From Pachysolen tannophilus NRRL Y-2460 (Eukaryota), in contig KV454013.1 in assembly GCA_001661245.1 (NCBI GenBank), positions 269,005 to 333,004 of the forward strand: a DNA stretch of 64,000 nt. The letters run 5' to 3'. The translations under genes were made by a program, and so were the position numbers. Shown piece after piece: positions 1 to 64,000 of the stretch. A model generated the notes under the pieces. It was not told where the DNA came from and searched no databases. It saw nothing but the letters and a program-made list of their open reading frames with translations. Position 1 is the stretch's first letter, and every line of letters starts with the position of its first letter.

Positions 1-57
1 CTTTAAAAAAAAAATTTTTGTTTTCTTTTAGTATAGTAGTACTATTTTATTTTATTT

Positions 58-323
58 TTACCTTGATAAGACGACGTATAAAGCATGTAAAATACCTGGG
101 AACCAAGCAAAACAACATAATATAATGTTAATGATAAAATCAGAACCAAACCCACATTCCATGAAAACAGCTAATGGTGGTAATATAATTGCTAAATTTT
201 TAATAAAAGATATTATATTTATTATGTTAGTATAACTAAAAATTAACACATGGGGTTAACTATAAACTTTTTCTGTTTTTTTTACTCACCAAGAATAATT
301 GCAATAATTTTTGAAGAATCCAT
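58..323 (-). CDS. PMP3: Plasma membrane proteolipid Pmp3 (UPF0057), two exons (323..290, 191..58)
   Basis: Spliced product MDSSKIIAIILAIILPPLAVFMECGFGSDFIINIILCCFAWFPGILHALYVVLSR has the Pmp3 motifs LPPLAV and PGILHALYVV. Intron 289..192 has a GTGAGT donor, TACTAAC branch site (232..226) and TAG acceptor, and joins in frame. Confidence 0.92.
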
Positions 324-819: not shown

Positions 820-2613
820 TTAAAAAATTCTTTCTAAAACGTTTTTAGTTACTGATCTATCAGGATTTGGCAAAATTGTCCACACTATCAAGACAACACT
901 GAATAAACCAATGAAAACTGGCATGACAACAAAAGTGCCTACAAATTCACTGATTAATCCAACCATAAATGGCCATACTGCACCTCCTGAACTACCTCCA
1001 CTTGTCATGATTGTTAATGAAATGACTTGAATCTTTCTAGGTAATACTCTTGTTGCAACAGTTATCATTAATGGATAAATTGGACCAACAAAAATTCCTG
1101 CAATAGATATAAAGACAGCCTCTAATATGATTATATTTACTAACCATGCTAATAATACAAATATTATGGCACCAATGGCAGCTATAGTGACTCCTCTTTT
1201 AGCACCCAGATATTTATGTATTCTATGAACAAGAAATAATCTTCCAATGGTTAAACCAGCCCAAAAACCAGAAGCAACATACCCAATTGAACTCTTATTA
1301 CCATCTCTATAATTTTCTAAAAATGAAACTATCCATCCTCCCATGGAAACTTCTGCAGCTTGATAATTAAATACAAATAATGTTAAAAGCCATGTTCTTA
1401 AATTCTTAACTGCCAATTTGAAATCTCCCTTTGGTATAACTGGTTCAACGGTATCAATTATTTTAGTTTCACTTCTAACAGGTCTAGTACGTAATTCTAT
1501 ATTTTCTTGTTCTTGTTCTTCTTCTTCAATCGCTGATGAAGTTATTATATCTTCACCATGAACAGCTTCACGATGATCCCATGGTCTTAAATCTTCATCT
1601 GCACCTTGAAATGAAAACCATAAATTAATTAAATTTGATATAGCTAAACCTAAAAGAATTAAATAATAAAAATGCCATTGAATTCCAGCATTTACCATAA
1701 TTGTAGAAATTATTGGAGATGCAGTTGCTCCCAGTCCATATGAACCATGAAACCATCCTAAATAAGTTGATGCTTTATCAAACCTAGATAAAAAAATATT
1801 CATTTGACTAAGACACATTGCTGAACCAAGACCTCCAATGAAAAAACCAATACAAATAATTGGATAAATTGTACCAGAACTAACTATAGCAAACATTATG
1901 GAAGTTAAAAAACATCCACCACAAGCCATTTTCCTCTTCCCCAATTTCAGATCTAAGAAATCACTACAGAGGGCAACAACTATAAAACCCAGAGCATTAC
2001 TTAACCAAATCAAAGAAACAATTGAGTAAGATATATTATAATAATCCTCGATATAACTTAAGATTGCACCTGGAGCACCATCTGAAGCACCACCTGAAAA
2101 AGACCATAAACAGACAGCAAAAACCCTCCATTTATTCTTAGGAGGAAAAGTTAAAGTCATCTCATGTGGAGTATGATTACTGGTGATGGTGGATGTAACA
2201 GCTGAACTTTTAAAACGAAATAATTGTTGTTGATCAGGAAACTCCAATGGATTCTTCCTATTGGAATACATAATCTCCTCAGCAGGAATTTCAAATCCAG
2301 GGGTTGTTGGTAAAGATTCTGGAATTGGAGGTGGAATCGCAGATAAATTCCCAAATGAACCGGCCTCAAATGATGGTTTAACAGAAGCAGATAATCGCCT
2401 ATGAACTATCGATGCAGTATCCATTTTTGTTGATTCAATTGTATCTTCTTCTTCTTCTTCCTCAGGTAAAAACTCAATACGAAAATTTTCCTTAACATCC
2501 AAATCCTCAGAACCTGTTGTAAAATTCAAATTCAAATTCTCATTATTGATACTTGAGTGTCCATTTCCACTAACTCTTACTTTCTCATTGTCAGAAGAAG
2601 CCAGAGTTGACAT
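820..2613 (-). CDS. MFS transporter, Bsc6/fucose-permease-like family
   Basis: 597 aa; acidic N-terminal tail then about 12 hydrophobic segments; motifs SDGAPGA, HGSYGxGATASP, EVSMGGW, GFWAGLTIGR, GPIYP. Confidence 0.85.
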   Translation of the reverse strand: MSTLASSDNEKVRVSGNGHSSINNENLNLNFTTGSEDLDVKENFRIEFLPEEEEEEDTIESTKMDTASIVHRRLSASVKPSFEAGSFGNLSAIPPPIPESLPTTPGFEIPAEEIMYSNRKNPLEFPDQQQLFRFKSSAVTSTITSNHTPHEMTLTFPPKNKWRVFAVCLWSFSGGASDGAPGAILSYIEDYYNISYSIVSLIWLSNALGFIVVALCSDFLDLKLGKRKMACGGCFLTSIMFAIVSSGTIYPIICIGFFIGGLGSAMCLSQMNIFLSRFDKASTYLGWFHGSYGLGATASPIISTIMVNAGIQWHFYYLILLGLAISNLINLWFSFQGADEDLRPWDHREAVHGEDIITSSAIEEEEQEQENIELRTRPVRSETKIIDTVEPVIPKGDFKLAVKNLRTWLLTLFVFNYQAAEVSMGGWIVSFLENYRDGNKSSIGYVASGFWAGLTIGRLFLVHRIHKYLGAKRGVTIAAIGAIIFVLLAWLVNIIILEAVFISIAGIFVGPIYPLMITVATRVLPRKIQVISLTIMTSGGSSGGAVWPFMVGLISEFVGTFVVMPVFIGLFSVVLIVWTILPNPDRSVTKNVLERIF

Positions 2614-3501: not shown

Positions 3502-4593
3502 ATGAAAGCATTAGTGTACTCAGGGGCTGGTCTCCGTGAATTCAAAGATGTTCCAAAACCAGCTCTATTAAAACCAACAGATGCAATCATTAAGACTACA
3601 TCAACTACTATTTGTGGTACCGATTTACATATTAGCTTAGGTGATGTTCCAGCTTGTAAGCCAGGTACTGTCTTGGGTCATGAAGCAATTGGTATTATTG
3701 AGTCCATCGGGAATGACGTCAAGAATTTTGTCAAAGGTGATAAAGTTATCATTTCATGTATCACTAGTTGTGGCAACTGCTATTATTGCCTTAAAAACTT
3801 GCAATCACATTGTTTAGATGGTGGTTGGATCTTGGGTCATAAGATTAATGGTACTCAGGCTGAATATACAAGAATTCCTCATGCCGATCATTCATTGATT
3901 AAAGTTCCACTGGGTATTCCAGACAAGGCACTACTAATGTTGAGTGATATCTTACCAACAGGTTACGAAATTGGGATTCTATCTGCAAAGATCGGAAAAG
4001 GTGACTCTGTGGCAATTGTTGGTGCAGGTCCTGTTGGTTTAGCTTGTTTGTTAACTGCTCAAACTTTCAAACCTTCTAAGATCATCATGATTGATATGGA
4101 TGATAATCGTCTTGCTACTTCAAAAGCATTGGGTGCTACTGACACCGTTAACCCTAAAAAAGTTGCAAGTGTCTCAGAAGAAATCAATAAGATTACCTCT
4201 AATATCACTGCAAAGAGAACTAACGGTGTAATTCTACAGGATGATGATCTATTTGGAGTCGATGTGGCAATTGAATGTGTAGGTATTCCTGCAACTTTCG
4301 ATACATGTCAGGAAATTATTGCTCCAGGTGGAAGAATTGCCAACGTTGGTGTTCACGGCAAGAAAGTCGACTTGCAATTACAAGATTTATGGATTAAAAA
4401 TATTGGTATCACCACAGGTTTAGTCAGTGCCTTTTCTACTCAAGAATTATTGGACAGAATTATCAGTGGTGATTTGGACCCCAAGAAATTGGTCACTCAC
4501 ACTTTTAAATTTAGCGACCTTGAAACCGCTTACGATATCTTTAGTCACGCAGCAACGACAGGTGCCATCAAGACATTTATCGAACTTGATTAA
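3502..4593 (+). CDS. Zn-dependent alcohol dehydrogenase (MDR, FDH-like ADH2 subfamily), copy A
   Basis: ICGTDLH, GHE, CxxCxxC..C structural Zn site, GTQAEY, LSDILPTG, GAGPVG. First ATG is at 3502; the track start is a TTG. Confidence 0.93.
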   Translation: MKALVYSGAGLREFKDVPKPALLKPTDAIIKTTSTTICGTDLHISLGDVPACKPGTVLGHEAIGIIESIGNDVKNFVKGDKVIISCITSCGNCYYCLKNLQSHCLDGGWILGHKINGTQAEYTRIPHADHSLIKVPLGIPDKALLMLSDILPTGYEIGILSAKIGKGDSVAIVGAGPVGLACLLTAQTFKPSKIIMIDMDDNRLATSKALGATDTVNPKKVASVSEEINKITSNITAKRTNGVILQDDDLFGVDVAIECVGIPATFDTCQEIIAPGGRIANVGVHGKKVDLQLQDLWIKNIGITTGLVSAFSTQELLDRIISGDLDPKKLVTHTFKFSDLETAYDIFSHAATTGAIKTFIELD

Positions 4594-4897: not shown

Positions 4898-7291
4898 ATG
4901 GACATACACCGTTGTAGGTTTGTGGATTTTACTCCTCATACCATAACTTCATTAGCATTTTCACATCAATCTACTAGAAAGTTTACACCAACAGATTTAA
5001 GATTAGCAGTTGGTAGAGCAAATGGAAATATAGAGATATGGAACCCGCGCCATAATTGGGTACACGAGCAAACGTTACAAGGGGGCAAGAATAGATCTAT
5101 TGAAGGTTTGGTGTGGTCAATTTGGGATAATATAGTACCGAGATTATTTTCTATTGGAGGATCTACAACGATAACAGAATGGGATTTGAAAACTGGATTA
5201 CCGTTGAAGAATCATGATTGCAATGCTGGGATAATATGGTCTGTTGCTTGTAGTGCAGATGGTCGGAAGTTAGCAGTTGGTTGCGATGATGGTAGTGTTG
5301 TAATCATAGATATATCTGGAGGTCCAGGATCCTTGGAACACGAGTCTATATTACAAAGACAAGATTCTAGAGTCTTGAGTATTACATGGCATGAAAATGA
5401 TTTAGTAATTGGTGGATGTGCAGATGGTAGAGTAAGAGTGTGGAATTTCAAACAAAACGATAGCAATAAGGCAAGATTAGTTTCAACTTTAAGAGTTGAT
5501 AAATCTAAAAAAGAAAGTACTTTAATTTGGTCTGTAATATCATTACCTACACAGGGACAATTTGTCACTGGTGATTCTACTGGTTCAATCAAATTTTGGG
5601 ACGTTCAGCATTTTGTTTTGCAACAATCTTTTGAAGTTCACGATGCTGATGTTTTGTGTCTTGCATCTGATTTGACTGGAGAAAAAATTTTTAGTGCAGG
5701 TGTTGATAGAAAGATATTTAATTTCAATTTACTTAAATCTGAAGATGGGAATTCTAAATGGATTAATTCTTCAAATAGATTATTACATACAAATGATGTT
5801 AGATCTATGTGCACTTTTGAAAGCAAAGGTGCAAATTTCTTAGTTTCAGGAGGTGTTGAAAGAACAATTGTAGTTAATTCAGTCAATAATTTACATGATG
5901 GACCATATAGAAAATTACCAATAACGTTACAAGATCCAAATATTATAGTGAATTTATCTAATAGATATGTTATTATGTGGCAAGATCAAACAATTAAAAT
6001 TTGGAAAATTTTAAGTGATATACAAAATAAAAAATTAGTTTCAAAATTAACCTTAGCGGATGATAGCAATATTACAAGTGTTGCTATTTCTCTGAATGGT
6101 AAATTCTTGGCTGTTGGTAGATTAACTGGTATCAAAATTTTTAAATTAACCGAAACAACTGATGAACGCAATCAAATTCATTTGAAAGTCAATAGGATTG
6201 AATCTAAGTTGTTGGAAAATTTCAATTCCAGGTATTTAACTTTTACTCCAAAAGATTTGTTATTGATAGTTTCTGCAGACAACGAACTAATTTCTTTCAA
6301 AGTCAATATTAATGCAAATGAAGGAGAAGATGATGTCGGTGAAATAGAATTTATTAACGATAATCAAGACGTCATTGAATATGAATTACCCGAAGAGTTA
6401 GTAACCAAATCTAAATTGTCACATATTCAAAATATAAATAATTTAAAGATATCTGAAAATGGTTCTCAAGTAGCTATATCAAGATTGAATGGTTCGGTCG
6501 AAATAGTTGATTTGGATAACACTGAATCCTATAGATTGGTGAAATTATCATCACTGCTGACACTGTTAGAGTTTACCTCCAGAAATACACTTGTATTGGT
6601 AAATTCTGAAAACAAGCTTTACGAATTCAATGTCTCAAAAGAGTCTATTAATAGTGCAAAGTTGTTGACTTCATGGTCAAAAAGGAATTCTGAATTTTTA
6701 CCTTCAAAATTTATGAATTTACAAACAAAATGTTCAGGTATTTTCAATGATACTTTGAATGATACAAGAATCTGGCTATTTGGTGACAATTGGTTATGTT
6801 TCTTTGATTTAAATTACAACATACCAATTGATGAAAAATTTGGTAATACAGGAAATAGACAGAACAATCAACAATTTAACATTAAAGAAAAGAAAAGAAT
6901 AAATAAAAAGAAAAGAAGAAACAGTAGCATTGTAATGACAATTTCAGAAGCAACGAATACTGTTGATGATTCAATCAATGAAGATTACTTAGAAGATAAT
7001 GATGAGGAATTACTTGCTAATGGTGAAAGCGTGGAAATAATTGACGGCATTGACTCTGAATTTGCAAGATCTTTAAGACAAACAGAAATAAACAGAATTA
7101 AGCTGGAATCAAACGGTACTGTTAATCAAGAAAATATTGATGAACTTGAGAAAAGTTTCTGGATGACCCAGAAATATAGCTCATTAATGCTAGTTGATAA
7201 ATTTGGCGCTAATGAAATTATTGTTATCGAGAGACCAGTTTTCCAATTGCCTTCTGCTCCTGCTTTCAAGTTGAATAAAATTCATGTTTAG
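4898..7291 (+). CDS. UTP4: U3 snoRNP / t-UTP WD40 protein Utp4
   Basis: Characteristic N-terminus MDIHRCRFVDFTP, LRLAVGRANGNIEIWNP, multiple WD40 repeats, C-terminal IERP. Confidence 0.93.
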   Translation: MDIHRCRFVDFTPHTITSLAFSHQSTRKFTPTDLRLAVGRANGNIEIWNPRHNWVHEQTLQGGKNRSIEGLVWSIWDNIVPRLFSIGGSTTITEWDLKTGLPLKNHDCNAGIIWSVACSADGRKLAVGCDDGSVVIIDISGGPGSLEHESILQRQDSRVLSITWHENDLVIGGCADGRVRVWNFKQNDSNKARLVSTLRVDKSKKESTLIWSVISLPTQGQFVTGDSTGSIKFWDVQHFVLQQSFEVHDADVLCLASDLTGEKIFSAGVDRKIFNFNLLKSEDGNSKWINSSNRLLHTNDVRSMCTFESKGANFLVSGGVERTIVVNSVNNLHDGPYRKLPITLQDPNIIVNLSNRYVIMWQDQTIKIWKILSDIQNKKLVSKLTLADDSNITSVAISLNGKFLAVGRLTGIKIFKLTETTDERNQIHLKVNRIESKLLENFNSRYLTFTPKDLLLIVSADNELISFKVNINANEGEDDVGEIEFINDNQDVIEYELPEELVTKSKLSHIQNINNLKISENGSQVAISRLNGSVEIVDLDNTESYRLVKLSSLLTLLEFTSRNTLVLVNSENKLYEFNVSKESINSAKLLTSWSKRNSEFLPSKFMNLQTKCSGIFNDTLNDTRIWLFGDNWLCFFDLNYNIPIDEKFGNTGNRQNNQQFNIKEKKRINKKKRRNSSIVMTISEATNTVDDSINEDYLEDNDEELLANGESVEIIDGIDSEFARSLRQTEINRIKLESNGTVNQENIDELEKSFWMTQKYSSLMLVDKFGANEIIVIERPVFQLPSAPAFKLNKIHV

Positions 7292-9304: not shown

Positions 9305-9339
<35 letters not shown>

Positions 9340-9388: not shown

Positions 9389-12300
9389 ATGGTTAAAGAA
9401 ATGTCGGCGGCTGTATCACACAAGCAATATCTACAGGCGCTACAGGGAATATCTGAGCCGGAGGAAATACAAGTTGCTGTTGCTCAAACTTTCCAAGATT
9501 CTCAAAGTTCAGTGGCTTCGCATAGGAAACAAGTGGCCATTTTAAGACAGGTACAAATAAAAGCCCATGAGTTGGGGTTTGAAGATGTATTTAATAGGTC
9601 TTATTTGAATATGATAAACATGATTTTGACATTGAAAAGAACGGAGCAAGCCGCTAATAAAATAGCTAAATTTGTATCAAGTTTTATTAAATTCATTTCA
9701 GATGAAGAAGAGAAAAATAAAAAAGAAAGTGAAGATGAGGATGAAGATGAAGATGAAGAATTAGATTTATATGAAAGGTTTATCAATGAAGTAATTGGAC
9801 ATTTGGAGAAAGGTGTTGAAGCATCAAATAAAAATGTTCGGTATCGTTGTATACAACTTTTGCATAATATTTTATTTTGTTTAAACGCTATTGATCAACA
9901 ATTATATCAAGATTTATACCCTGTGGTTTCTAAAAGATTATATGACAAAGATGTTTACGTCAGGGTGGCGACCGTAAGGCTAATGGGGCTTTTCCAAAAC
10001 CCAGATTCTTTGGAAAGTGAAGATGTATCTGAAGCTGCTCAAAATTTATTAATTACCATACAAAATGATTTAGGTGCTGATGTTAGAAGAGCAGCATTAG
10101 TAACATTAGAAAAAAATAAAATAACGAGAGATTATTTACTTGAAAGATCAAGAGATACAAATCCTGTTAATAGAAGAATTGTTTATACAAAGATTTTAAA
10201 AGAACTAGGAGATTTTAGAAATATAGATAGTTCTGTTAGAGAGAAACTTTTAATTTGGGGATTATTGGATAGAGATACATCGGTAAGAGATTCAGCTAGA
10301 AAATTAATAAATAGTTGGCTAATCACTTGTAATGACGATTTGATTGAACTTATATCATGTATACCAGCTACAAGTACCATAGCGGAAAACGCAATAAAGA
10401 CATTATTTGATGAAAGAAAAGATTTATTTGCTAAAATTAGTTTTAGCGAAGAATTATGGAAAGGATTAAACCCAGAAGCTTCCATTTTAATAAGATGTTA
10501 TTTCCAATATTGTAATAAAAATAATTATAATGAATTAATTGATAAAAATTTCCCAGAAGCAGCTGAATTTTCATCAATGTTATCCAAATATTTGAAATTA
10601 AGGAAAGTTCTAACAGAGCAAAATGACAACGGAGTTCAAGAATTGAATTTTGTTATTCAACAATTACTCATCATTGCCATCGGTTATGACTATAGTGATG
10701 AAGTTGGACGTAGAGAGATGTTACAAACTTTACGTTCAGCATTGTGTTATGATAAATTGGAAGAAAGTTTAGTCAAAGATTTATTAGAAGTATTAAAGAA
10801 GATTTCTATTAATGAAAAAGATTTCTGTCAAATGATTAGTGAAATAATTGAAGATATTAGAGATGCTGCAATTGAAGAAGATCAAGAAAATTCTAAAAAT
10901 AGCGTGACTTCCCAACTGCGTCAACGTATTGAAGAGGAAGATGATGAAGATTTTTATTCTGCAAATTCAGATATTGATAATGATGCTTCCCTTGAAAGGC
11001 CAGCAAAAAAGAGAAAGACAAGTGAGGCTAGAGAGGAATTACAAATTTCAGATGAAATCATGCATCAAACTTTAGTGATTGTGAAACATATGTTGGAAAT
11101 TGTGAATATTTCTTTAGAAAATAATTATTCTATTGTCTCATTAATTGAAAATGTTATTAGACCTGCAATTAAAAATACACAAATGGCAATCAGAATTCTT
11201 GGTATTGAATGTCTTGGCTTAGTTTGTCTTTTAGATAAGCAGACAGCGTCTGATTCGTTATTCCTTTTTGGTATCTGTGTTTCTCAAGGTGAATTAGAAT
11301 TGAAATTAAGCGCGTTGAAATCAATTTTTGATATTTTATCAGTTCATGGTACTGCTGATATCTTAGACACTGAGGATGGAGTTGATTCGTTATCGCTTTC
11401 GAAGTTATTATACAAATGTTTAAAGGATACGTCAAACAAAGAATTACAGTCATGTACGGCTATTGGTATTTGCAAATTATATTTGGCAGATATTTTGGTT
11501 GATAATGAATTGTTTGAAACTATACTATTAACTTATTTCAGTCCAACGGTCTATGAGAATGAAGTCTTAAAGCAAGCACTATCATTTTGTATTCCTGTAT
11601 ATGCTCATTCACATCCAAGCCATCAAGAAAGACTTCTGAAAATTAGTGGTGATGCATTCTTGAGATCATATGAAGTTTATGAAAATGATTTAGATGAAGA
11701 AGAAAAGAAAAAAATGCCCACTCCAACAAATATTTTACAACAGCTCATTTTTTTCACAGACCCAAGAAATATTGTCAAGCAATTGGATGAAGATATGGAA
11801 AAATCTACTGTTCATTTGGAATTTGTAATTCAGTTATTTAAGTTGATTGTTCATAAAGATTATGCAGACAATAAAAATTTTAAGAAATTGATTATTACAA
11901 ATCTTTCTAAAATTTTTTTACCATCAACAAATGCAGTTGATCATGAAGAAAGTGAAAAACTTTCAAAATTAATTACTGAATTGACCGAATTACTAAACAA
12001 ATGCGAATTACAAAACAGTAGTAATGACGCTGACGATTCAAAAGATGAAGATTCCGAAAGCGATTTATTGAAATTTGATGGACCTACCAAAAACGCATTC
12101 ATCAAGTTTAAATCATTGATCACCGCCCTTGCTAATGAAAATTTGAAAGTCCTAAGACGTGAGAAGACCGAAGAAAATATGGATGATGACGATGAAATGT
12201 CTGTAAATCACCATAATGAAAAAGAAGAAAATAATGATAATGACGATGACAATGAGGCAAACCATGAGGAAGACCATGAGGTTAGTGATTCAGATAGAGA

Positions 12301-12439
12301 AGATATGCTTGTAGATCAAGAAGATAATAATTCTAATGCATCGGAAGACGAGGAAATTGTTTCTTCTGCGGATGAAGACAATGCAGAGGTTGAAAATGAG
12401 GTTGATGATTCGGAAGAAGAAAGTGACTCAAACGAATAA
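9389..12439 (+). CDS. YCG1: Condensin HEAT-repeat subunit Ycg1/Cnd3 (CAP-G)
   Basis: SHRKQ, KNVRYRC, ADVRRAAL, ERSRD..NRR.VY, WGLLDRD, LGLVCLLDK, CKLYLADI, QALSFCIPVY; acidic C-terminal tail. Confidence 0.93.
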   Translation: MVKEMSAAVSHKQYLQALQGISEPEEIQVAVAQTFQDSQSSVASHRKQVAILRQVQIKAHELGFEDVFNRSYLNMINMILTLKRTEQAANKIAKFVSSFIKFISDEEEKNKKESEDEDEDEDEELDLYERFINEVIGHLEKGVEASNKNVRYRCIQLLHNILFCLNAIDQQLYQDLYPVVSKRLYDKDVYVRVATVRLMGLFQNPDSLESEDVSEAAQNLLITIQNDLGADVRRAALVTLEKNKITRDYLLERSRDTNPVNRRIVYTKILKELGDFRNIDSSVREKLLIWGLLDRDTSVRDSARKLINSWLITCNDDLIELISCIPATSTIAENAIKTLFDERKDLFAKISFSEELWKGLNPEASILIRCYFQYCNKNNYNELIDKNFPEAAEFSSMLSKYLKLRKVLTEQNDNGVQELNFVIQQLLIIAIGYDYSDEVGRREMLQTLRSALCYDKLEESLVKDLLEVLKKISINEKDFCQMISEIIEDIRDAAIEEDQENSKNSVTSQLRQRIEEEDDEDFYSANSDIDNDASLERPAKKRKTSEAREELQISDEIMHQTLVIVKHMLEIVNISLENNYSIVSLIENVIRPAIKNTQMAIRILGIECLGLVCLLDKQTASDSLFLFGICVSQGELELKLSALKSIFDILSVHGTADILDTEDGVDSLSLSKLLYKCLKDTSNKELQSCTAIGICKLYLADILVDNELFETILLTYFSPTVYENEVLKQALSFCIPVYAHSHPSHQERLLKISGDAFLRSYEVYENDLDEEEKKKMPTPTNILQQLIFFTDPRNIVKQLDEDMEKSTVHLEFVIQLFKLIVHKDYADNKNFKKLIITNLSKIFLPSTNAVDHEESEKLSKLITELTELLNKCELQNSSNDADDSKDEDSESDLLKFDGPTKNAFIKFKSLITALANENLKVLRREKTEENMDDDDEMSVNHHNEKEENNDNDDDNEANHEEDHEVSDSDREDMLVDQEDNNSNASEDEEIVSSADEDNAEVENEVDDSEEESDSNE

Positions 12440-13712: not shown

Positions 13713-13741
13713 GAAAACTTTATTAATATATATATTTTACT

Positions 13742-34416: not shown

Positions 34417-34462
34417 AAAAATAAAAAANAAAAAANAAAAAAATAAAAAATAAAAAAAAACC

Positions 34463-49176: not shown

Positions 49177-51633
49177 TTAAAAATTCACTAAAAGTTCTAA
49201 ATCTTCAAAATTAATAATTCTTTCACTGTCAAGCTCATTCCAATCAATACTAAAACAGCTTTTATCATGAAAATCATTCAAATTTCTTAATACTCTATTT
49301 GACAAGAAAGGCGCAACACCATTATTCAAAGTACCCACGGTAATGTGATTATACTTGTTCATCCAAAGTTTCTTATTCTCATCATCTCCTAATTTCAATT
49401 GATTTATATCGCACTCTATACACAACAATTTTCCATCACCACATAATTTTTTCAAGATTAATGTAAAAGGTGTAAGTGGTTTAGTTAATTTAAAAGTTCT
49501 CCCTCTTAAATTCCCACCTTCATTTGCTTTAAGGATTTCATTAATATCCTTCAAAAAATAATTTTCAACATAGTCATTAAAAATATTTACATTTTTATCA
49601 TTTCTGTGAGTTAATGTGACATGGAACTCTTTCTGAATTCTATCAGTTTCTTTCAACAATTGGTATAGATTCACAATATCTTCATTTGAAGTATTGTGGG
49701 ACAATAAGTTCTCAATTTTTGAGATAATTAAATCTGGATTCTTAATACCTATAGAGAAATAAATTGGCTGCTGCTTTTTGTTACGATTTGATTTAGAAGA
49801 GCTACTTTTAACAATCTTGCTAAAATTTGGCTCGTAACTCAACGCATCTTGAAAGCTGTTATGAATAGCTTCGTCTGATGGAATTTCAGGAATTATCTCA
49901 GGAAAAGATTGCTTAATTTGAGTTATAATTTTATATAAATTCTTCAAGTTTGTATTTTCAGTTTCATCCCATTCCATATCGATAATCAAATTAAATAAAC
50001 TATCAGGCTGCCTAGTAGGGTCAACATTTTGAAATCTACCTATGAATCCCTTCATTATATTGGCAACATCATTCATTCCCTTTTCTCCTGCTTTTATAGA
50101 TTGATGATTGTTGCCTCTTGCGCTAACTCTTTTGTAGGTTATTTCCCACAACTTTGATTTGATCTTATCTTTATCTTCAGGAAAAAAATTTAGACAAATA
50201 AATTTTAAATTGTATTTTCCCTTATTTAATTTATTAAAATCTTCAAATATTTGTTTTCTTTCCCTAAATTGATGATTATTTCTATCCATTATACAGCAAT
50301 CCGAATTTTCCAACAACTCTAAAGCACCTCTAATGAATTTATCTTTAACAGGATTGGGTATATTATCATTTTGGATATGTGACCAATGAGGAAATAATTT
50401 AGTTAATGAAATTGCAATTGTAGTTTTACCACAACCAATAGTGGCTACAGGTACAATGATATATTTCGTAATGGTGTTTTGAGAAACTGATGTCAAATTC
50501 AATGAAGATAAAGCTAACTCCATATCAAAATCTTTATCCTCATAATTTGCAACTTCAAACCCTTTTTTACCATAATGATTTAAAAATTGATTTCTCAAAT
50601 CAATTATTCCATGATTGTTTAAATATTTTTCTTTTAAATCAGGATTAGAGGATAAAATTGGCATAATGAATGCAATATATTTCAATGTTTGATATTTATG
50701 TTTTGATATTTTCAACTCTTCAATAGGCTTTCCACTAATTATTTCTTTTGTTACTTCTCTCCAACTTCTATACATTAAGTAAGGTTCTTCAAATTTGTAT
50801 TTAAAGAAAAAATCTTCATCTTGCAAATTCTTACACCTAATGACAAATCCCTCAGCTTCTCTCCCATCATAAGTACCCGTCTTTGAGCAATCGGTTAAAA
50901 TCTGCTGAAGATGATTAATATCATCAATAACTGTAAATTCAATTTCTTTGAATCCAAACATTTTTGAAAATTCATGTACCTTTTCCATTGAAAGAGTCAT
51001 GAAATTTACCTGATTCATGTTTAAACCATGAAGATATAATCCTGATCTTTTCTTGGAATATTCTAAAACATGTTCTTCAAATTCATCATCACATAATTCC
51101 AGGACAGCAGTGAGATTATTCTCATATAAATATTTTGCAAAATTTTTAATATCAATATTTTTAGAGTTTAACTGATTTTCTAACATTTTTTGACCATACA
51201 AAGCATGGTTCCTATTCACATCATCTCTTTCACCAGTAGAATGCTTAGAGCAAACAACAATAGTACCATCCTCTAACCCAGATATGAAAATAATACATCC
51301 ATTTTCCTTTAACGTTAAATAATATGGACCTCTTGTAGATTCAACTAAATTCTGCCACCTAGTGATTGGTAATTCATCAACATTGAAAAATTTATCATAT
51401 CCTCTAATAATAATTTTCTCATCATTCAAAGTAAACAATCCCCTTGCTTGAGAAACCAAAGTCTCACTTTTACCATAATCCCATTCATTAAATTTCCAAC
51501 TATCAATTTTAATATTCGTATTCAAAATTTGAAAAGTATTTTTCCTCACCTTACCTCTTTTCAAAGTCTTATCATGGTAATTCGAATTCAATTGTTTAAT
51601 CAACTCGATATCATCAGAGCACTCACGACACAT
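49177..51633 (-). CDS. TRL1: Trifunctional fungal tRNA ligase Trl1 (ligase, kinase, CPDase)
   Basis: ARGLF, RGYDKFFN, KENGC, CSKHSTG, EGFVIR, FFFKYK; P-loop ATIGCGKTT, DRNNH; 2H motifs FHVTL and HITVG. Confidence 0.96.
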   Translation of the reverse strand: MCRECSDDIELIKQLNSNYHDKTLKRGKVRKNTFQILNTNIKIDSWKFNEWDYGKSETLVSQARGLFTLNDEKIIIRGYDKFFNVDELPITRWQNLVESTRGPYYLTLKENGCIIFISGLEDGTIVVCSKHSTGERDDVNRNHALYGQKMLENQLNSKNIDIKNFAKYLYENNLTAVLELCDDEFEEHVLEYSKKRSGLYLHGLNMNQVNFMTLSMEKVHEFSKMFGFKEIEFTVIDDINHLQQILTDCSKTGTYDGREAEGFVIRCKNLQDEDFFFKYKFEEPYLMYRSWREVTKEIISGKPIEELKISKHKYQTLKYIAFIMPILSSNPDLKEKYLNNHGIIDLRNQFLNHYGKKGFEVANYEDKDFDMELALSSLNLTSVSQNTITKYIIVPVATIGCGKTTIAISLTKLFPHWSHIQNDNIPNPVKDKFIRGALELLENSDCCIMDRNNHQFRERKQIFEDFNKLNKGKYNLKFICLNFFPEDKDKIKSKLWEITYKRVSARGNNHQSIKAGEKGMNDVANIMKGFIGRFQNVDPTRQPDSLFNLIIDMEWDETENTNLKNLYKIITQIKQSFPEIIPEIPSDEAIHNSFQDALSYEPNFSKIVKSSSSKSNRNKKQQPIYFSIGIKNPDLIISKIENLLSHNTSNEDIVNLYQLLKETDRIQKEFHVTLTHRNDKNVNIFNDYVENYFLKDINEILKANEGGNLRGRTFKLTKPLTPFTLILKKLCGDGKLLCIECDINQLKLGDDENKKLWMNKYNHITVGTLNNGVAPFLSNRVLRNLNDFHDKSCFSIDWNELDSERIINFEDLELLVNF

Positions 51634-55911: not shown

Positions 55912-56778
55912 ATGTCCAAATTAACTGCTGCTTCCACTTATAAATTAGCTTCGGGCTTTCAAATTCCAGTTATTGGTTTTGGTGTCTATTTGACACCACA
56001 AGATGTTGCTCAAAATGTTATTTACAAAGCTTTAGAAATTGGTTATAGACACTTTGATACAGCCCAATATTATAATAATGAGCAAGAAGTTGTTGATGGT
56101 ATTTCAAGTTATTTGAAAGATCATCCAAACCTTAAGAGATCAGATATTTTCTATACCACAAAAGTTGATACTCCTAATCAGGGTTATGAAAAAACCAAGA
56201 TTTCTTTAGAGCAATCTTTATTGAAGGCAAAAGCTTTAAAATATATTGACTTGGTATTAGTCCATGCTCCATTAACAAATAAGGAAAAAAGATTGGGTAC
56301 GTACAAGGCTTTGCAAGAGTATGTAGAGACAGGTAAGATAAGGTCAATTGGTGTTTCGAATTATGGTATTTCTCATATTGAAGAACTTTACAATTGGGAG
56401 GGCTTCAAGATCCCAATTTCTGCTAATCAAATTGAATTGAATCCATGGCTCACAAGAAAGGAATTGGTTGAGTATTGTAGGTCGAAAAATATTCTGGTCG
56501 AGGCCTTTTCGCCTTTAACCAGAGGTAAAAGAATTGACGACCCAGAATTAACAGCATTGGCTAAGAAATACAATAAAACTCCAGCTCAAATTTTATTAAG
56601 ATGGTCATTAGATTCAGGATTCATTACTCTTCCAAAGACTGTCACTGAAAAGAGAATGGTTGAAAATTTGGATATTTTTGATTTTGAACTTGAAAAGGAG
56701 GACTTCAAGAGCTTGACGCACGATGATCAATATTGGATTAGTCTGCCCCATTGGGATCCTGTTACTTATGAAGGTTAG
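55912..56778 (+). CDS. Aldo-keto reductase (YJR096W / 2,5-DKG reductase-like)
   Basis: IPVIGFGVY, GYRHFDTAQYY.NE, IDLVLVH, SIGVSNY, NQIELNP, AQILLRW, LPK. ATG at 55912. Confidence 0.93.
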   Translation: MSKLTAASTYKLASGFQIPVIGFGVYLTPQDVAQNVIYKALEIGYRHFDTAQYYNNEQEVVDGISSYLKDHPNLKRSDIFYTTKVDTPNQGYEKTKISLEQSLLKAKALKYIDLVLVHAPLTNKEKRLGTYKALQEYVETGKIRSIGVSNYGISHIEELYNWEGFKIPISANQIELNPWLTRKELVEYCRSKNILVEAFSPLTRGKRIDDPELTALAKKYNKTPAQILLRWSLDSGFITLPKTVTEKRMVENLDIFDFELEKEDFKSLTHDDQYWISLPHWDPVTYEG

Positions 56779-57410: not shown

Positions 57411-58994
57411 TTATTTAGCCCAAGGAGCTTTAGTAACAGCAACATTATCATTATTACCAGATACTCTTTTATATTGAGCTCCTCCACCACCGCGTACTCG
57501 TTGTGATTCTGTTCCAAAAACTGGTGGCGGTGGTTTATGAATGTTGATTTCGTTTCTACTTACAATACCAGTGCTTGCTTTTTTAATTTTTTCCAATCTT
57601 TCTGATTTTTCCTTTTCCTTCATCTGTTCTTCCAATTCAATGTCACCTTCTTTCAAATTATCTCTACTTGCTTCAGTACTAGCAGGTAAGGGTTTACCTG
57701 TTTCAAAATCTTTCCAAGGATATAATACATTACCAAAATAAAAATGTTGAACAACTGGGAACTTGGATAGTACTTCTACAAAATACATTTTAATCATCCC
57801 TTTTGTAACTTTATCCCAAGTCTTAACAGCACTGATATCATATAAAATTGGTGAATGTTCGTTGAATGGACCTGTTTTAACTTTCCTTATAAAGGAAATA
57901 CTATTAAAATATAAATTTGATGTCCTAAATTTATGTAACAGCATTGGGTTTAAGATAGATGATGGTGAAGGTATTTTATTTCTGTGATGAGGAAAAGGAT
58001 GATGCTGGTAGTACTCATGTGTGCTTGTGTTTGTCTTTGTTGTTGTTGCTGCTGTGGTGGTGTTATTTTCTTCCATTGAAGTGAAATCAATGAATTGACA
58101 GGCACCCAAAATATAAATTAAATGGAAATGATCATCTAAACCCCATACACCATGAGATCCGGCAGGTTCTAGAGTATAAGTTAAAATTAATCTTTTAACC
58201 AAATCATAATATTTAGCAAAAATAATCAATATATCCACACCTGTTATAGTGTCCCGATTCAAAATATCAACCATGAGTAAAGCATTTATAAATGCCAAGA
58301 ATGATAATTCATGACCAGTTCCAAAATCTAACCTTTGTCTTGATCCAAATGAACCAATAAAATAATGGGTCAATTCTGTTATAAACAAATCAAAATTATT
58401 ATACTTGTAAAAAATTTTCAAATGATTATGGAAAAATCCTTCAATCTTCTCAGATAAAGAATCATGCCATGAACGGAAAGCCATATTACCATACCGTCTT
58501 GGGCCAGGCAAAATCGGAGTCTCAACAATTAATTGGTTCAACCTTGCTATTAGATCCAATACCGCTTTAACTTCTGGTTTTAAATTTTTCGAAAAATCAC
58601 TACTCCCAGTAGCATCTTTACTTCCGCTACCGTTACCGCCATTACCGTCTTCTTGGTTTGAAACTGGTGGCGGCAAATTCAAACCACCGCCCCTACTGGC
58701 CCCAGTACCCCCACTGCCGTTTTTATGTCCGTTTTTTTTATGACCGTCTTCAAAAGAAACCAATTCATCATCAAGCACACCTTTTGGAACTTCACATTTA
58801 CTTATCAACTGGCAAATCTTGAATATACATGATTTAATATTATGTATCGCAACAGATTTTTCAAAATTTCCCACATCTTGTTGGTTATATATTTGCTTAA
58901 CAGGAACACACCAATCTTCAATTCTATCCAAACTTCCTTCCGTCTTCAAACGCGGGAAACTAAATTGTTTTTCTTCCGTAACAATCGATGTCAT
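57411..58994 (-). CDS. RRD1: PP2A phosphatase activator (PTPA) Rrd1/Ypa1
   Basis: PGPRRYGN, SFGSRQRLDFGTGHELSF, YTLEPAGSHGVWGLDDHF, GPFNEHSP.LYDIS, EVLSKFPVVQHF. ATG at 58994. Confidence 0.9.
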   Translation of the reverse strand: MTSIVTEEKQFSFPRLKTEGSLDRIEDWCVPVKQIYNQQDVGNFEKSVAIHNIKSCIFKICQLISKCEVPKGVLDDELVSFEDGHKKNGHKNGSGGTGASRGGGLNLPPPVSNQEDGNGGNGSGSKDATGSSDFSKNLKPEVKAVLDLIARLNQLIVETPILPGPRRYGNMAFRSWHDSLSEKIEGFFHNHLKIFYKYNNFDLFITELTHYFIGSFGSRQRLDFGTGHELSFLAFINALLMVDILNRDTITGVDILIIFAKYYDLVKRLILTYTLEPAGSHGVWGLDDHFHLIYILGACQFIDFTSMEENNTTTAATTTKTNTSTHEYYQHHPFPHHRNKIPSPSSILNPMLLHKFRTSNLYFNSISFIRKVKTGPFNEHSPILYDISAVKTWDKVTKGMIKMYFVEVLSKFPVVQHFYFGNVLYPWKDFETGKPLPASTEASRDNLKEGDIELEEQMKEKEKSERLEKIKKASTGIVSRNEINIHKPPPPVFGTESQRVRGGGGAQYKRVSGNNDNVAVTKAPWAK

Positions 58995-59380: not shown

Positions 59381-62300
59381 ATGTGGGATTCGTCTGCTTT
59401 CACGTTGTTATATGAGTCAATTAGAAGGCATGATGTGATTTCGATGGATGCATCATTAAAAAAATTACAAGATGATTTATTTGATTTAATATTAAATCCA
59501 TTAAAGAATGAGTCGAGTCGGCTGGTTTTGGAATCAGGAGATGTGACTTTTCCTGATGGACAGCAGTCTAAACTTAACAAAGATTTTATTCTATCTTCAA
59601 TCAAGTTGTCAGATGAATTGAATTTAGATGAATTGGTACTGGCAAATATGTTTCAATATTCTTTAAATAAGAGAAGTTTAGGTATTTCAACATTTGATGC
59701 TGCAAAAGCTAATTATTATATTAGAAGACAACATATCTTGTACATTGTTTCGTATATTTTGAATGTTTCTAATGATCTTAAATGTGTTGAATTTTTCTTG
59801 GGAAATGAAAAATTTATTGAAAATATAATTAAAAGTTTTAACAAAGTTGAAACAGAATTAGAAGATATTAAAGATTTAATTAAAAGATCAAAATTATTAG
59901 GTACTTATCATTCTACTCAATTACATCAAAGTATAAAGTTTAAAAGAGATTTCTTATTTCAAGAACATCAAACTTTAGGTGAAATATTACTGGGTGTGGT
60001 TAATAGAAGTAAATTAACAAAAGATTATTTTTTAAAAATTTTGGATAATTTAACTTTAAATTATGATGCAGATGATTTATTTATTGTTAATTATTTACCA
60101 GCATTATTTTTATTTTGTTCAAAATTAAATTATTTGGAGGATTTAGATGTTATATCTTTACATTCTAATTTTACTAAAGAATTATTGAATGATGAAAAAA
60201 ATTTAGCTTCTAAACCTATAAAAGCATCTATGATATTAATTTTTTTAACATTTTTCATTGATCGGTTTAATCAGCAACCTGAAAAATTAGAAAATTTTGA
60301 TTTTGAAAAAAATTGTTTTAACCCAATGTTGAAATGTATTGAGTTAGGTGCAATTGAACAATTAATGAGTATTGCAGCTGATACAACAGATTTTAATAAA
60401 GAAAAAGGAGTAAATGAAACTTTTTATGATTTTAGATCTTTGTTACAACGACATATACCTACATTAATTCCAAAAAGAGCCTTGGATATTGATGAAGAAG
60501 CAACACTTGCTTTAAAGAGAAAATTACAACAAGAAAGATTTAAAAATCATAATAATTCATCAATTTTAGAAGATTCGGTAACTCCAATATATATTTTAAA
60601 TAAAAATTTGAAAATAACTAAACATTTTATGCAATTATTTGCCCCTGCATTTTCAAATTTCATTCAACGTTTTATCAGCAATAGTTCATATCTCTTGACA
60701 AAATTAAAAGATGCTGAAGAAGATTTGTTATTATCGAGTGAAAGTATTACTTTGGATGAACTTTCAGAAAAAGCTGACTTAGAAAGATTTTATTTAACTA
60801 TTTTTTATCTATATTCATCAAGACCTTTCTTGTGTCAAGTTTTTTGGAATGATAAAGAATCAGAAGCTTATAACTTCATCAAGAGGGCTTCAGTTTCTAA
60901 CTCACCATTGATCAGTTCTACTTACTGTTTGATGTTAAGTGCATTAGCTTCAGGTGATCAAAACTCTATTGAAGTTTATAATTTTTTATTCTCAAACCAT
61001 CTGACTACATTAACGTCGAACGTTAATATTGGAAGCATGTATACTTTAAGAATAAATTGGTCAACAATTTATGAAGCTTTGATATACGCCAACACAGTTT
61101 CATCTGAACCAGTATTGGATACTTCAGAAAATTTTGCCTTACCTGGCAATTCGTCGTTCAGGCCCAAAAACCAGCAGATTGTTGTTCCAGAAATAGGGGA
61201 AGATTCTATTATATGCCGAGCTGGATATTTTCAGTTAATAGCTCAAGTAGCGTTCAATAATGAAAAGACAAAAAAACAATTGTTTGAAAGTGACAATATG
61301 GAATTACCTAAGATTTTATCTAATTTTTTAAATAATGAATCACCCTTTGTTGGTCCATGCCTATTAACTTTAAGATCATTAGTGGGTAATGATATTGAAA
61401 TTCGTCAAAAGATTTGGGTTATTATAGATGGGTGGATTTTCAATAGATCCAAGGTACATCAATTTATGAGTAAGGATGGCTCAAAATTAAACCTCAAAAG
61501 AATTTATTCAAATTATTTGAAGACCTATATCGATGTTCTCGCATTTGTGAATCTAATAAATGATTTGATATCACCATTAGATAATAATAAAACAGACAAT
61601 TTTAAGCAATGGGAATTATATTATCCTGTTAATTTGGGGCTTGATAACGGAAGGAAAAGAGGTATTTATCCCTATTTTGAATATTTGTTTGATGAAATTT
61701 TCCAAAATGTAAATAAAGGTCACCTTTCTACTGAAGAAAGAGAATATTTACAAATTCCATTTTTGAAGTTGGCGTTGAATTGTTTAAATTTTTTCAATGA
61801 GTCGATAATTGAATGTTCCCAGCATTGCAATTTAAAAAATTTAAATAATTTATTTACAAATAGAAATTTCAGAGAATTTGTCCAATCAGAGCCATCATCG
61901 GCAATTATGAATTTTATGTTTCAAGAAAACAATTATAATGTTTTGTTTGAATTATGTTCTGTTGGCATCGACAATATTGTTGATAAACCAAGTGATTCTA
62001 ACTCAGTTACAATTTTAGAATTGACTTTATCAATTATAAACAGAATATTGATATTGCAACCTTATTACATTGACAACTTATTGCCTATAATTAAGGATTC
62101 CTCAAATACAAACTATTTGACGAGTTCTGTGGGTACTCATGGTTTGAGATCTTTCTTTGATGCAATTTTATTCAAACTCCCGGTGGTTGCACATTTTGCT
62201 CTTTACGTAGGTGCACAGCATTTGAAAGTTGCCTCAACATCACTTTCAATTTTGGATAAAATATCCAAGGCAGAAGTATTCGCTACTTCAAATGAATTAA

Positions 62301-64000
62301 TTGGTAAAAATCGATTATTGACAACTTTAGACACAATTGATGAGTCCCTGAGAATTAAAAATTCATTTATTGATCAATTGGAAACTGAAATCATAAGCGA
62401 TGAAAATTTGAGTTTAAAAATTGAAATTTTGAATTTTATCAATTCACATTTATCTTATAATGATAACGAATCTACGGTATCTCACTTTTTGTTAGGTTTT
62501 CAAGTTCGAGGTAAAAATACATTAACATTAGGATTCAAAAGAAGTAAAGGTGATATAGACTCTGGAAGATCCGTCTTGAGCACATTACTTTATATTTTGA
62601 ACTTGAGCGTTGAGATAATTAGTAAGAACTATAACATTGAATATACTTTTACAAGATTGACCTCATTAATAATGGAGATAATTTTGAAGATTACGAGAAG
62701 CCTGATGTCAAGAAACTTGGTGACTCCCTATTTAAGAAGCAATAACTTGTTTTTGAAGTTGATCTCGTCGGAACCTAAAATTGATTCCGACTTAACCTTA
62801 TGGCATGGACTGAAATTCACTAATAATTTAAACCAAAATAATTTGTTTACCACTCAAAGTCAAAGTATCGGCTCGTTTTTATCATTTATTCAGCATAGAA
62901 GCTTTATTCTTCAATATTTGGCCTACGAGTTAAGTAATATGTTATCGGTGAATGGATCCGTTTCATTGACAAAAAAATATATCGATTCCTTAATTCATAA
63001 TAATGAACCTCTAAGTGGAGCTTCAAAAGTGTTAAACTTTTTAGATATCCTAGAGTTTAATTTCATAAACATTATAGAGCCGTTAAATCTGAAATTGTTT
63101 CAAGATTTTGATTATGATTACATTTTGAAAAATATCAAGTTAAACAATAAAAACATATTTCTCTCAGATTCAAGTGATTCTACATCCTTATATGATCTAA
63201 CCATTATTGATGTTATGGTTGAACTAGCTGGAAAAGAAATAAAATTTTTACACAGGAATGATATTGGAAAACAAAATTTCGACACTCTTTTTGAGAACGA
63301 GGCTGGATATTTGAAGAAATTTTTGACAAATGTTATAACTATTAGGGACTTCAAAAAGTATCAGTTGAAGTGTTTACATTCTTGGGCAACTTTGATACAG
63401 GTTATTGTTTCAAGCAGTAGTATTGATAGCGTAACAAAGTCGAATTTCATATTAAAAATCTTTCAATCGATATTACCTAAAATCAACGACTATATTGAAA
63501 TAGATATTTCCTTTGCGGAAGAACTAATCTCACTGTGTGTCTTATTGTACGATTTGTATGATAATAATGAGGATAACATTAATTTGATATCTCTTAGATT
63601 ATATCCATTATTCAAGACTTGTGTGAATGGAATTTTAGCTCCGCTTTCTACCCCTGATTTAAGGTCAGATTTATACGTGTTAGCAAATAGATATTTAAAC
63701 CAAATTGAAAATTCACAAGATGTTCTTGATGACTTACTTACACCTATCAAAGAAGGTATTGAAACGGAAAGATTTTTCAAAATAATACTTGAAGATTCAA
63801 TAGGAGGCGAAACTTCATCTAGGATTACATCATTATTATTACTAGAAACTTTTATGAAAATCACTTCTTCTAGGCAAGACAATTTTATTTTAAGCTTGTT
63901 AGTTAAAAATAACTACTTGGTTCTATTAATTAGATCGATTAAAAGAGCCGACGATTTATTATTTTCATATGCTGCTACTACATTGTCAGCTATTCCTACT
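59381..64000 (+). CDS. NUP192: Inner-ring nucleoporin Nup192 (Nup205 family), runs off the window end
   Basis: Not in the ORF track (no stop inside the window). ATG 59381: MWDSSAFTLLYESI..KNESSR..LESG..KLSDELNLDE..RRQHIL; later KADLERFYL, VSHFLLGF, LKCLHSW, ILPKINDYIE.DISFAEEL. Confidence 0.9.
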   Translation, partial: MWDSSAFTLLYESIRRHDVISMDASLKKLQDDLFDLILNPLKNESSRLVLESGDVTFPDGQQSKLNKDFILSSIKLSDELNLDELVLANMFQYSLNKRSLGISTFDAAKANYYIRRQHILYIVSYILNVSNDLKCVEFFLGNEKFIENIIKSFNKVETELEDIKDLIKRSKLLGTYHSTQLHQSIKFKRDFLFQEHQTLGEILLGVVNRSKLTKDYFLKILDNLTLNYDADDLFIVNYLPALFLFCSKLNYLEDLDVISLHSNFTKELLNDEKNLASKPIKASMILIFLTFFIDRFNQQPEKLENFDFEKNCFNPMLKCIELGAIEQLMSIAADTTDFNKEKGVNETFYDFRSLLQRHIPTLIPKRALDIDEEATLALKRKLQQERFKNHNNSSILEDSVTPIYILNKNLKITKHFMQLFAPAFSNFIQRFISNSSYLLTKLKDAEEDLLLSSESITLDELSEKADLERFYLTIFYLYSSRPFLCQVFWNDKESEAYNFIKRASVSNSPLISSTYCLMLSALASGDQNSIEVYNFLFSNHLTTLTSNVNIGSMYTLRINWSTIYEALIYANTVSSEPVLDTSENFALPGNSSFRPKNQQIVVPEIGEDSIICRAGYFQLIAQVAFNNEKTKKQLFESDNMELPKILSNFLNNESPFVGPCLLTLRSLVGNDIEIRQKIWVIIDGWIFNRSKVHQFMSKDGSKLNLKRIYSNYLKTYIDVLAFVNLINDLISPLDNNKTDNFKQWELYYPVNLGLDNGRKRGIYPYFEYLFDEIFQNVNKGHLSTEEREYLQIPFLKLALNCLNFFNESIIECSQHCNLKNLNNLFTNRNFREFVQSEPSSAIMNFMFQENNYNVLFELCSVGIDNIVDKPSDSNSVTILELTLSIINRILILQPYYIDNLLPIIKDSSNTNYLTSSVGTHGLRSFFDAILFKLPVVAHFALYVGAQHLKVASTSLSILDKISKAEVFATSNELIGKNRLLTTLDTIDESLRIKNSFIDQLETEIISDENLSLKIEILNFINSHLSYNDNESTVSHFLLGFQVRGKNTLTLGFKRSKGDIDSGRSVLSTLLYILNLSVEIISKNYNIEYTFTRLTSLIMEIILKITRSLMSRNLVTPYLRSNNLFLKLISSEPKIDSDLTLWHGLKFTNNLNQNNLFTTQSQSIGSFLSFIQHRSFILQYLAYELSNMLSVNGSVSLTKKYIDSLIHNNEPLSGASKVLNFLDILEFNFINIIEPLNLKLFQDFDYDYILKNIKLNNKNIFLSDSSDSTSLYDLTIIDVMVELAGKEIKFLHRNDIGKQNFDTLFENEAGYLKKFLTNVITIRDFKKYQLKCLHSWATLIQVIVSSSSIDSVTKSNFILKIFQSILPKINDYIEIDISFAEELISLCVLLYDLYDNNEDNINLISLRLYPLFKTCVNGILAPLSTPDLRSDLYVLANRYLNQIENSQDVLDDLLTPIKEGIETERFFKIILEDSIGGETSSRITSLLLLETFMKITSSRQDNFILSLLVKNNYLVLLIRSIKRADDLLFSYAATTLSAIPT

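Follow-up and report, generated by a model that had tools for sequence, protein, structure and literature searches.

The stretch of DNA analysed here (the window, 64,000 bases) is AT-rich, with a G+C content of 30%, and dense with intron-poor yeast genes, and our subject is the amino acid for which the codon CTG stands in those genes. The initial annotation of the window proposed that CUG has been reassigned from leucine to alanine, and all 11 of the positions that it listed proved to be in-frame CTG codons. As the genes of the window we took 33 open reading frames (ORFs), 29 of them with at least 200 codons and four credible smaller ones. Pfam matches identify UTP4, YCG1, AFG1, ALA1, TFB3/MAT1, TRM13, ENP1 (bystin), PLC1, RPC34, NTR2, ornithine carbamoyltransferase, TRL1, EXO70, RAP1, PTPA and NUP192, together with two major facilitator superfamily (MFS) transporters, two zinc alcohol dehydrogenases, an aldo-keto reductase and others.

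CTG accounts for 83 of the 16,262 codons in the 33 ORFs (5.1 per 1000) and occurs at least once in 30 of them. The density is the same between the genes (5.5 per 1000 per strand), and in the 29 large ORFs CTG is as frequent as CTA (79 versus 75), so the earlier description of in-frame CTG as rare does not hold. The ratio of CTG to CTA, 1.05, is nevertheless the highest ratio of a G-ending to an A-ending codon in any codon box, while all others lie between 0.11 and 0.62, among them GCG/GCA at 0.12, CCG/CCA at 0.11, ACG/ACA at 0.16, TCG/TCA at 0.25 and GTG/GTA at 0.59. So far out of line with the other boxes, CTG is not behaving like a codon synonymous with its CTN neighbours.

To read the codon from homologous proteins, we translated CTG as X in four test genes and collected homologues of each, keeping 118 of 119 for UTP4, all 54 for NUP192, all 101 for a BSC6-like MFS transporter and 147 of 150 for ALA1. 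A HMMER profile was built for each gene from the homologues without the query, and the emission probabilities were read at every query codon in a manner like that of Codetta. The four genes hold 22 CTG codons; for 20 of these, at least half of the homologues have a residue in the column. Because the default entropy weighting of HMMER misassigns several ordinary codons (ATG, CAT, TGT and others), we added a calibration on each amino acid's own sites as well as two sharper weightings. Sharper weighting gave the correct amino acid, and with wide margins, for 13 of the 14 rare codons used as controls (5 to 32 sites apiece), ACG being the one exception; the correct calls include GCC and GCG as alanine and TCC, TCG and AGC as serine. 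CTA (14 sites), CTC (6 sites) and CTT (29 sites) were each called as leucine by a wide margin in the same pipeline that was applied to CTG.

The genes of this window do not use CTG for leucine. Only 1 of the 22 CTG codons stands in a column with a leucine majority (more than 50%), in comparison with 212 of 420 TTA, TTG, CTT, CTC and CTA codons of these genes (p=9e-6 by Fisher's test), and the mean leucine emission at CTG lies seven standard errors below that at true leucine sites (z=-7.0, p<5e-5). The remark in the initial annotation that conserved leucines avoid CTG is borne out by the columns with more than 80% leucine, of which 101 are encoded by TTA, TTG, CTA, CTT or CTC and one by CTG. 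The same annotation had named dominance of the CTG columns by leucine or by serine as grounds for abandoning the alanine proposal; neither was found, with a leucine majority in 1 and a serine majority in 0 of the 22 columns, the latter against 83 of 347 for serine codons (p=0.006).

Which amino acid takes the place of leucine is less sharply marked. Summed over the 20 filled columns, the log-likelihood with hmmbuild --enone is -62.7 for alanine, -66.6 for serine, -67.9 for leucine and -74.7 for threonine, and with --eclust it is -56.2 for alanine, -56.7 for leucine and -59.2 for serine. The lead of alanine under these two sharper weightings is thus small, 0.5 to 5.2 nats over leucine and 3.0 to 3.9 nats over serine. 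Alanine ranks first of the 20 amino acids in two of the three weightings and has the least unfavourable calibrated z in all three (-4.07, -4.26 and -3.7). Judged from the homologue columns, alanine therefore appears to be the best single fit, weakly, and the columns alone would not settle between alanine and serine or threonine.

The CTG codons tend towards poorly conserved places, with 5 of 22 in a column that has any majority residue, while 1685 of the 3786 other codons lie in one (p=0.051). Proline-majority columns, on the other hand, hold 3 of the 22 CTG codons and 17 of 3786 other non-proline codons (p=1.8e-4), with no leucine codon listed there. The proline-column sites are 6557-6559 in UTP4, 62702-62704 in NUP192 and 25007-25009 in ALA1; a further one, 1948-1950, lies in the BSC6-like gene. 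Two other approaches gave nothing of use. A naive-Bayes comparison of the 12 flanking residues at all 83 CTG codons put leucine first, serine next and alanine 20 nats behind, but in its controls the true amino acid ranked anywhere from 1st to 17th, with leucine often the false winner, and we give it no weight. In the nearest relative, ‘odd leucines’ that would be a sign of CTG-encoded alanine mistranslated as leucine were 3 among 233 conserved-column leucines, standing in alanine columns, too few to use.

Gene by gene, 32 CTG sites could be set against homologues. On our reading of the counts, about five stand at alanine or small-residue positions, eight at leucine or hydrophobic positions, four at proline positions and 15 at variable polar positions. 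The proposal that CTG falls on alanine or small positions, which was the argument of the initial annotation, therefore stands for about five of the 32 sites and not for the rest, and it weighs less than was claimed.

The cleanest conserved alanine at a CTG codon of the window is in TRL1, the tRNA ligase gene (49177..51633, minus strand), at aa178 (51100-51102), within the motif TAVAE.CDD that is invariant in fungal tRNA ligases. Among solved tRNA ligases, one has TAVAEYCDD and three have TAVAELCDD opposite the TAV-CTG-ELCDDEFEEH of the window, so that the codon faces alanine in 4 of 4 alignments listed (the best four of five distinct solved chains). This site was absent from the list of CTG sites in the initial annotation.

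NUP192 (59381..64000, plus strand), whose 3' end is cut by the window, has nine CTG codons. Two of them stand in columns with an alanine plurality, namely aa87 (59639-59641; A 20, V 12, T 11, S 5 and C 4 of 54 homologues), as had been proposed, and aa990 (62348-62350; A 21, L 8, I 7). At aa48 (59522-59524) the case for an alanine or small position is weaker than first stated, with S 22, Q 8, K 8 and A 6. The other columns are aa204 (59990-59992; Y 30, F 11, L 6), aa541 (61001-61003; S 14, T 8), aa1108 (62702-62704; P 32), aa1144 (62810-62812; R 14, K 9), aa1237 (63089-63091; N 9, K 7) and aa1385 (63533-63535), to which we return below.

UTP4 (4898..7291, plus strand) has five CTG codons, and both of the sites that had been read as alanine or small positions fare worse against its 118 homologues. 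At aa556 (6563-6565) leucine leads (L 52, A 26, C 13), and at aa399 (6092-6094), matched earlier to an S(P/A)DG motif, the column is E 28, D 16, S 15 and P 13. Of the remaining three, aa553 (6554-6556) has Y 28, I 17, F 16 and P 12, aa554 (6557-6559) has P 71, I 20, A 15 and V 11, and aa736 (7103-7105) falls in an insertion. In ALA1, the alanyl-tRNA synthetase gene (22904..25879, plus strand), the suggested E(I/V)PL context of aa702 (25007-25009) agrees with the column, which has proline in 78 of 147 cluster representatives, followed by D 13, S 13 and A 10; aa792 (25277-25279) has E 39, K 18, Q 18 and A 14, and aa811 (25334-25336) lies in an insertion with gaps in 129 of the 147 representatives. 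The five solved-structure alignments listed for ALA1 all end before its CTG codons. Its DNA occurs in five sequencing runs, with no RNA data set among those listed. The BSC6-like transporter gene (823..2613, minus strand; Pfam MFS_1) also has five, of which aa4 (2602-2604) precedes aa208 (1990-1992; V 26, L 23, I 22, A 18 of 101 homologues), aa222 (1948-1950; P 38, E 18, S 8), aa294 (1732-1734; L 33, V 27, I 19, A 7) and aa469 (1207-1209; L 36, F 20, I 18).

Solved structures provide the comparison for most of the other genes. In PLC1 (38864..40819, minus strand), set against PLC delta-1 and PLC gamma-2, the CTG at aa497 (39329-39331) stands opposite glycine in the former and alanine in the latter, confirming the small position proposed for it; aa64 (40628-40630) faces Q/F and aa222 (40154-40156) arginine and glutamine. 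The TMA19/TCTP site, aa33 (33822-33824; gene 33414..33920, minus strand), had been offered as an alanine position by comparison with EADCAMV of S. cerevisiae; among the solved TCTPs with which we compared it, the best match (1h6q) has glutamine there and four other chains have lysine. Nor was the suggested P(A/E)G confirmed for the zinc alcohol dehydrogenase at 3502..4593 (plus strand; Pfam ADH_N and ADH_zinc_N), in which aa137 (3910-3912) faces E, N, D, P and D in five solved homologues and lysine in the paralogue at 15797-16903. The two dehydrogenase genes are closely similar, with 11 kb between them and opposite orientations (3502-4593, plus; 15797-16903, minus), and CTG occurs in the first of the pair only.

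In YCG1, a condensin gene (9389..12439, plus strand; Pfam Cnd3) with CTG at aa510 (10916-10918) and aa750 (11636-11638), the second site faces serine in three solved chains named ‘condensin complex subunit 3’ and alanine in a fourth, more distant chain. The three CTG columns of ornithine carbamoyltransferase (OTC; 48013..49056, plus strand) are variable among solved OTCs, with S/G/K at aa64 (48202-48204), H/S/K at aa223 (48679-48681) and I/K/E at aa270 (48820-48822). The aldo-keto reductase (55912..56778, plus strand) has Q, Q, A, Q and V in five solved homologues at aa195 (56494-56496), and its aa278 (56743-56745) lies beyond the aligned part. PTPA (RRD; 57411..58994, minus strand) carries one CTG, aa352 (57939-57941), in a leucine-type column; the solved chains that extend to this site are those of two yeast activators, the other matched chains ending short of it. 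The AFG1-like ATPase gene (18384..19946, plus strand; Pfam AFG1_ATPase) has CTG at aa188 (18945-18947), aa445 (19716-19718) and aa480 (19821-19823), TRM13 at aa421 (33151-33153) and OAR1 at aa158 (35073-35075); for the OAR1 fragment around this codon, no solved homologue matched at 1e-7.

Public records of the same DNA carry alanine at 27 of the 27 CTG codons that we checked in seven proteins, including 5 of 5 in UTP4 (record P0001), 9 of 9 in NUP192 (P0121) and 5 of 5 in the BSC6-like protein (P0176). Exact table-26 translations of OTC, TMA19, AFG1 and the alcohol dehydrogenase are present in NCBI, UniRef and nr, encoded on a 1,751,653-base contig, and for TMA19 the table-26 translation is found in the public sets where the table-12 translation is absent. 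For the ALA1 and PLC1 ORFs neither the table-26 nor the table-1 translation matched in the public sets, presumably because the public gene models differ from ours.

We built trees from UTP4 (29 rows) and NUP192 (19 rows), with supports from the Shimodaira-Hasegawa-like approximate likelihood ratio test (SH-aLRT); they were made without any named sequence of the alanine clade to which the query could be joined. In the UTP4 tree the query and its nearest relative, 63% identical, form a pair (support 99) that is sister to the Leu2 (Pichiaceae) clade of Kuraishia, Ogataea, Brettanomyces and C. boidinii (support 96), while Ser1, Leu1 and Leu2 are each monophyletic without the query pair and Ascoidea is placed elsewhere. 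With NUP192 the two again group together (99), here as a separate branch that belongs to none of Leu1 (100), Ser1 (100) and Leu2 (99). According to PMC5951914, the alanine clade of Pachysolen, Nakazawaea and Peterozyma and the Leu2 clade are sisters inside the Pichiaceae in the broad sense, and the lineage of the window, as far as two gene trees can place it, appears to sit where that clade sits, beside the Leu2 Pichiaceae. The orthologues of UTP4 and the BSC6-like gene in the nearest relative (P0002 and P0177) both bear the label ‘6 contigs, longest 29015’, which hints that the two genes are neighbours in that species too.

Taken together, these results make it very probable that the window is nuclear DNA from a budding yeast of the CUG-Ala lineage (Pachysolen and its relatives), in which CTG stands for alanine as in NCBI translation table 26. 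The species is probably Pachysolen tannophilus itself, since none of the named proteins among the hits for UTP4, NUP192 and the BSC6-like transporter comes closer than about 50% and none belongs to a named yeast of the alanine clade, a pattern that fits the one species of this clade with protein annotation on deposit. The proposal of the initial annotation is thereby upheld: the public records have alanine, the lineage appears to lie beside Leu2, leucine is rejected (p=9e-6) and alanine appears to fit best. The identity of the new amino acid as alanine rests mainly on evidence from outside the window, namely the public records, the lineage position, and the published mass spectrometry and tRNA-Ala(CAG).

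From the literature on Pachysolen, the change in the lineage of the window would have come about as follows. The tRNA-Leu that read CUG would have been lost; a copy of a tRNA-Ala gene would have gained a CAG anticodon and captured the codon; and this tRNA would be charged with alanine, so that CUG would be translated as alanine in the peptides. Alanyl-tRNA synthetase identifies its tRNAs by the acceptor stem and does not depend on the anticodon, which makes such charging possible. In PMC4937558 the tRNA(CAG) of Pachysolen proves to be a tRNA-Ala that carries G3:U70 and A73, and the account given there of Pachysolen tannophilus peptides has alanine at 97.2% of 907 fully supported CUG positions.

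A number of observations weigh against this reading and have to be set beside it. Within the column test, Ala-majority columns hold 0 of 22 CTG codons in comparison with 51 of 180 for GCN codons (p=0.0014), and the calibrated p for alanine at the CTG sites is 1e-4 to 1.4e-3, which makes them atypical even for alanine. Under the default weighting, leucine and alanine tie over the first 18 sites with leucine 0.9 nats ahead, and when that weighting is divided by background frequencies methionine, threonine and alanine lead within 2.4 nats. The nearest relative, 47-63% identical, has alanine at 1 of the 13 CTG sites aligned in UTP4 and NUP192. Individual sites also point away from alanine: NUP192 aa1385, which the initial annotation had itself put forward as a counterexample and rightly so, is a near-invariant leucine (L 52, M 2 of 54 homologues), PTPA aa352 stands opposite leucine in the solved yeast ‘PP2A activator 1’ and ‘activator 2’, and three transmembrane CTG positions of the BSC6-like transporter are L/V/I columns. 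The alanine in public records reflects the annotators' choice of table and so is no measurement of decoding, and for OTC the table-1 translation is public along with the table-26 one, which implies that an older or parallel standard-code annotation is still in circulation. The backbone of the NUP192 tree is poorly supported, and with UTP4 alone the approximately unbiased (AU) test does not quite reject a clade of the query with Ser1 (p=0.052). Finally, no tRNA with a CAG anticodon was found within the 64-kb window, where the sole RNA gene found is a tRNA-Asp(GTC) (12673-12745, minus strand).

Much of the mixture seen in the columns becomes understandable if most CTG codons of the window are evolutionarily young, having probably arisen by single-base changes at sites that tolerate alanine. 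The likely source codons, each one step from CTG, would be CCG (proline), CAG (glutamine), CGG (arginine), GTG (valine) and TTG or CTN (leucine), with ATG also one step away. Since two base changes separate GCN from CTG, a conserved alanine could reach CTG only by way of valine or proline, and this distance would explain why CTG is so rarely found in conserved alanine columns. CTG codons arising in place of proline, glutamine, arginine, valine and leucine would in turn produce the mixture observed and the excess in proline columns. At the proline-column CTG sites of UTP4 and NUP192 the nearest relative keeps proline, and together with the proline-column excess this points to CCG-to-CTG transitions of recent date, later than the reassignment. 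The CTG codons at strong leucine columns may likewise be replacements of leucine by alanine, a plainer reading than residual leucine decoding.

Residual decoding of that kind is one alternative. CTG could be mostly alanine with a share of leucine, in the way reported for serine and leucine in Ascoidea asiatica, and the columns do look mixed, with about eight of 32 sites leucine or hydrophobic, about five alanine or small and no single typical fit; such dual decoding has been reported in another yeast (PMC6041473). The codons in question would be NUP192 aa1385, PTPA aa352 and the L/V/I sites of the BSC6-like transporter, read partly or depending on context as leucine. We consider both ambiguous decoding at large and such a residue of it at particular codons very improbable, since the peptide data summarized in PMC4937558, with 97.2% alanine at fully supported Pachysolen CUG codons, include ambiguous peptide-spectrum matches at eight positions only, and young codons derived from leucine, valine, proline and glutamine neighbours explain the mixture more simply, the proline-column excess (3 of 22 versus 17 of 3786) included.

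That CTG might instead be serine, whether the yeast belongs to Ser1 (Candida), to Ser2 (Ascoidea/Saccharomycopsis) or to a lineage with an independent new capture by a tRNA-Ser, is very improbable, although many CTG codons fall in stretches that are polar and variable, serine has the plurality at NUP192 aa48 and aa541, and it comes second in one weighting, 3.9 nats behind alanine. A place as sister of Ser1 is just within what the AU result quoted above allows. Under each weighting, however, serine trails alanine, the gap being 3.0 to 3.9 nats and its calibrated z -5.1 to -5.4 in comparison with -3.7 to -4.3, and CTG is missing from the serine-majority columns in which serine codons are common. 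The eight hydrophobic columns and the invariant alanine of TRL1 would suit it poorly, the query is nested in Ser1 in neither tree and does not group with Ascoidea, and TMA19 is public in its table-26 and not its table-12 form.

The standard code, with CTG a rare leucine codon of an AT-rich genome confined to fast-evolving positions, could appeal to NUP192 aa1385, PTPA aa352 and several L/V/I columns, to the tie of leucine and alanine under the default weighting and to the public table-1 OTC, but it is extremely improbable given the near absence of CTG from leucine-majority columns (1 of 22 against 212 of 420; z=-7.0), the clear leucine signal of the equally rare CTA, CTC and CTT, the three CTG codons in proline-majority columns that have no ordinary leucine codon listed, a CTG/CTA ratio of 1.05 unlike that of every other codon box, and a lineage outside both Leu1 and Leu2.

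The remaining 43 in-frame CTG codons are spread over other ORFs of the window (1..64000), many of them within acidic or low-complexity stretches. NTR2 (46474-47637) has six. In three ORFs without a Pfam family, which contain acidic, Asn, Pro or Ser low-complexity runs, the density of CTG is above that of the conserved genes: an ORF of 760 amino acids at 26195-28477 (minus strand) has eight CTG codons, one at 41164-42048 (minus strand) has five and one at 20854-22062 (plus strand) has four. The window also includes 996 N, in three intergenic runs of 300 to 351 bases (16994-17293, 22350-22692 and 34066-34416) and as single N at 34429 and 34436.

For the annotation of this DNA the consequence of reading CTG as alanine is that a standard or bacterial table enters leucine at codons that the cell translates as alanine, and 30 of the 33 ORFs need table 26. 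The code change itself is already known and brings no new biology; as the initial annotation had cautioned, it may not be new for the species, having been published since 2016 and adopted in public annotation. What the window adds is small: its CTG positions are hardly ever conserved alanines and are over-represented in conserved proline columns, which suggests a single-base origin after reassignment. Peptides covering NUP192 aa1385 and PTPA aa352 would be good targets for the question of residual leucine decoding.

Among known systems, the stochastic serine/leucine decoding of CUG in Ascoidea asiatica, as presented in PMC6041473, resembles the window in its mixed columns without a single typical amino acid; it differs in that the UTP4 tree places Ascoidea away from the query and that published Pachysolen peptides are 97.2% alanine. 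The CUG-Ser1 code of Candida (table 12) is similar in that the same codon was taken from leucine and CTG stands mostly at non-conserved positions. Here, in contrast, serine fits worse than alanine and the query falls within Ser1 in neither tree, and the capturing tRNA is another one according to PMC5951914.

The closest likeness is to the CUG-Ala clade and table 26 of Pachysolen, from which nothing found in the window departs. PMC4937558 states that Pachysolen reassigned CUG ‘mainly at conserved alanine positions’; in the window 3 to 5 of 32 sites are alanine or small columns and none of 22 has an alanine majority, in a small sample and under differing criteria. The young-codon pattern proposed here agrees with the capture-type models of the same paper, which also counts 16,824 CUG codons in the Pachysolen genome and 80% of Pachysolen tannophilus genes affected; set against the 5.1 CTG per 1000 codons of the window, that genome total would suggest a density of similar order. 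In both, CTG is not leucine, and the public records of the window are translated with alanine; alanine also appears to fit its columns best, and its lineage may share with the clade the position as sister to Leu2.

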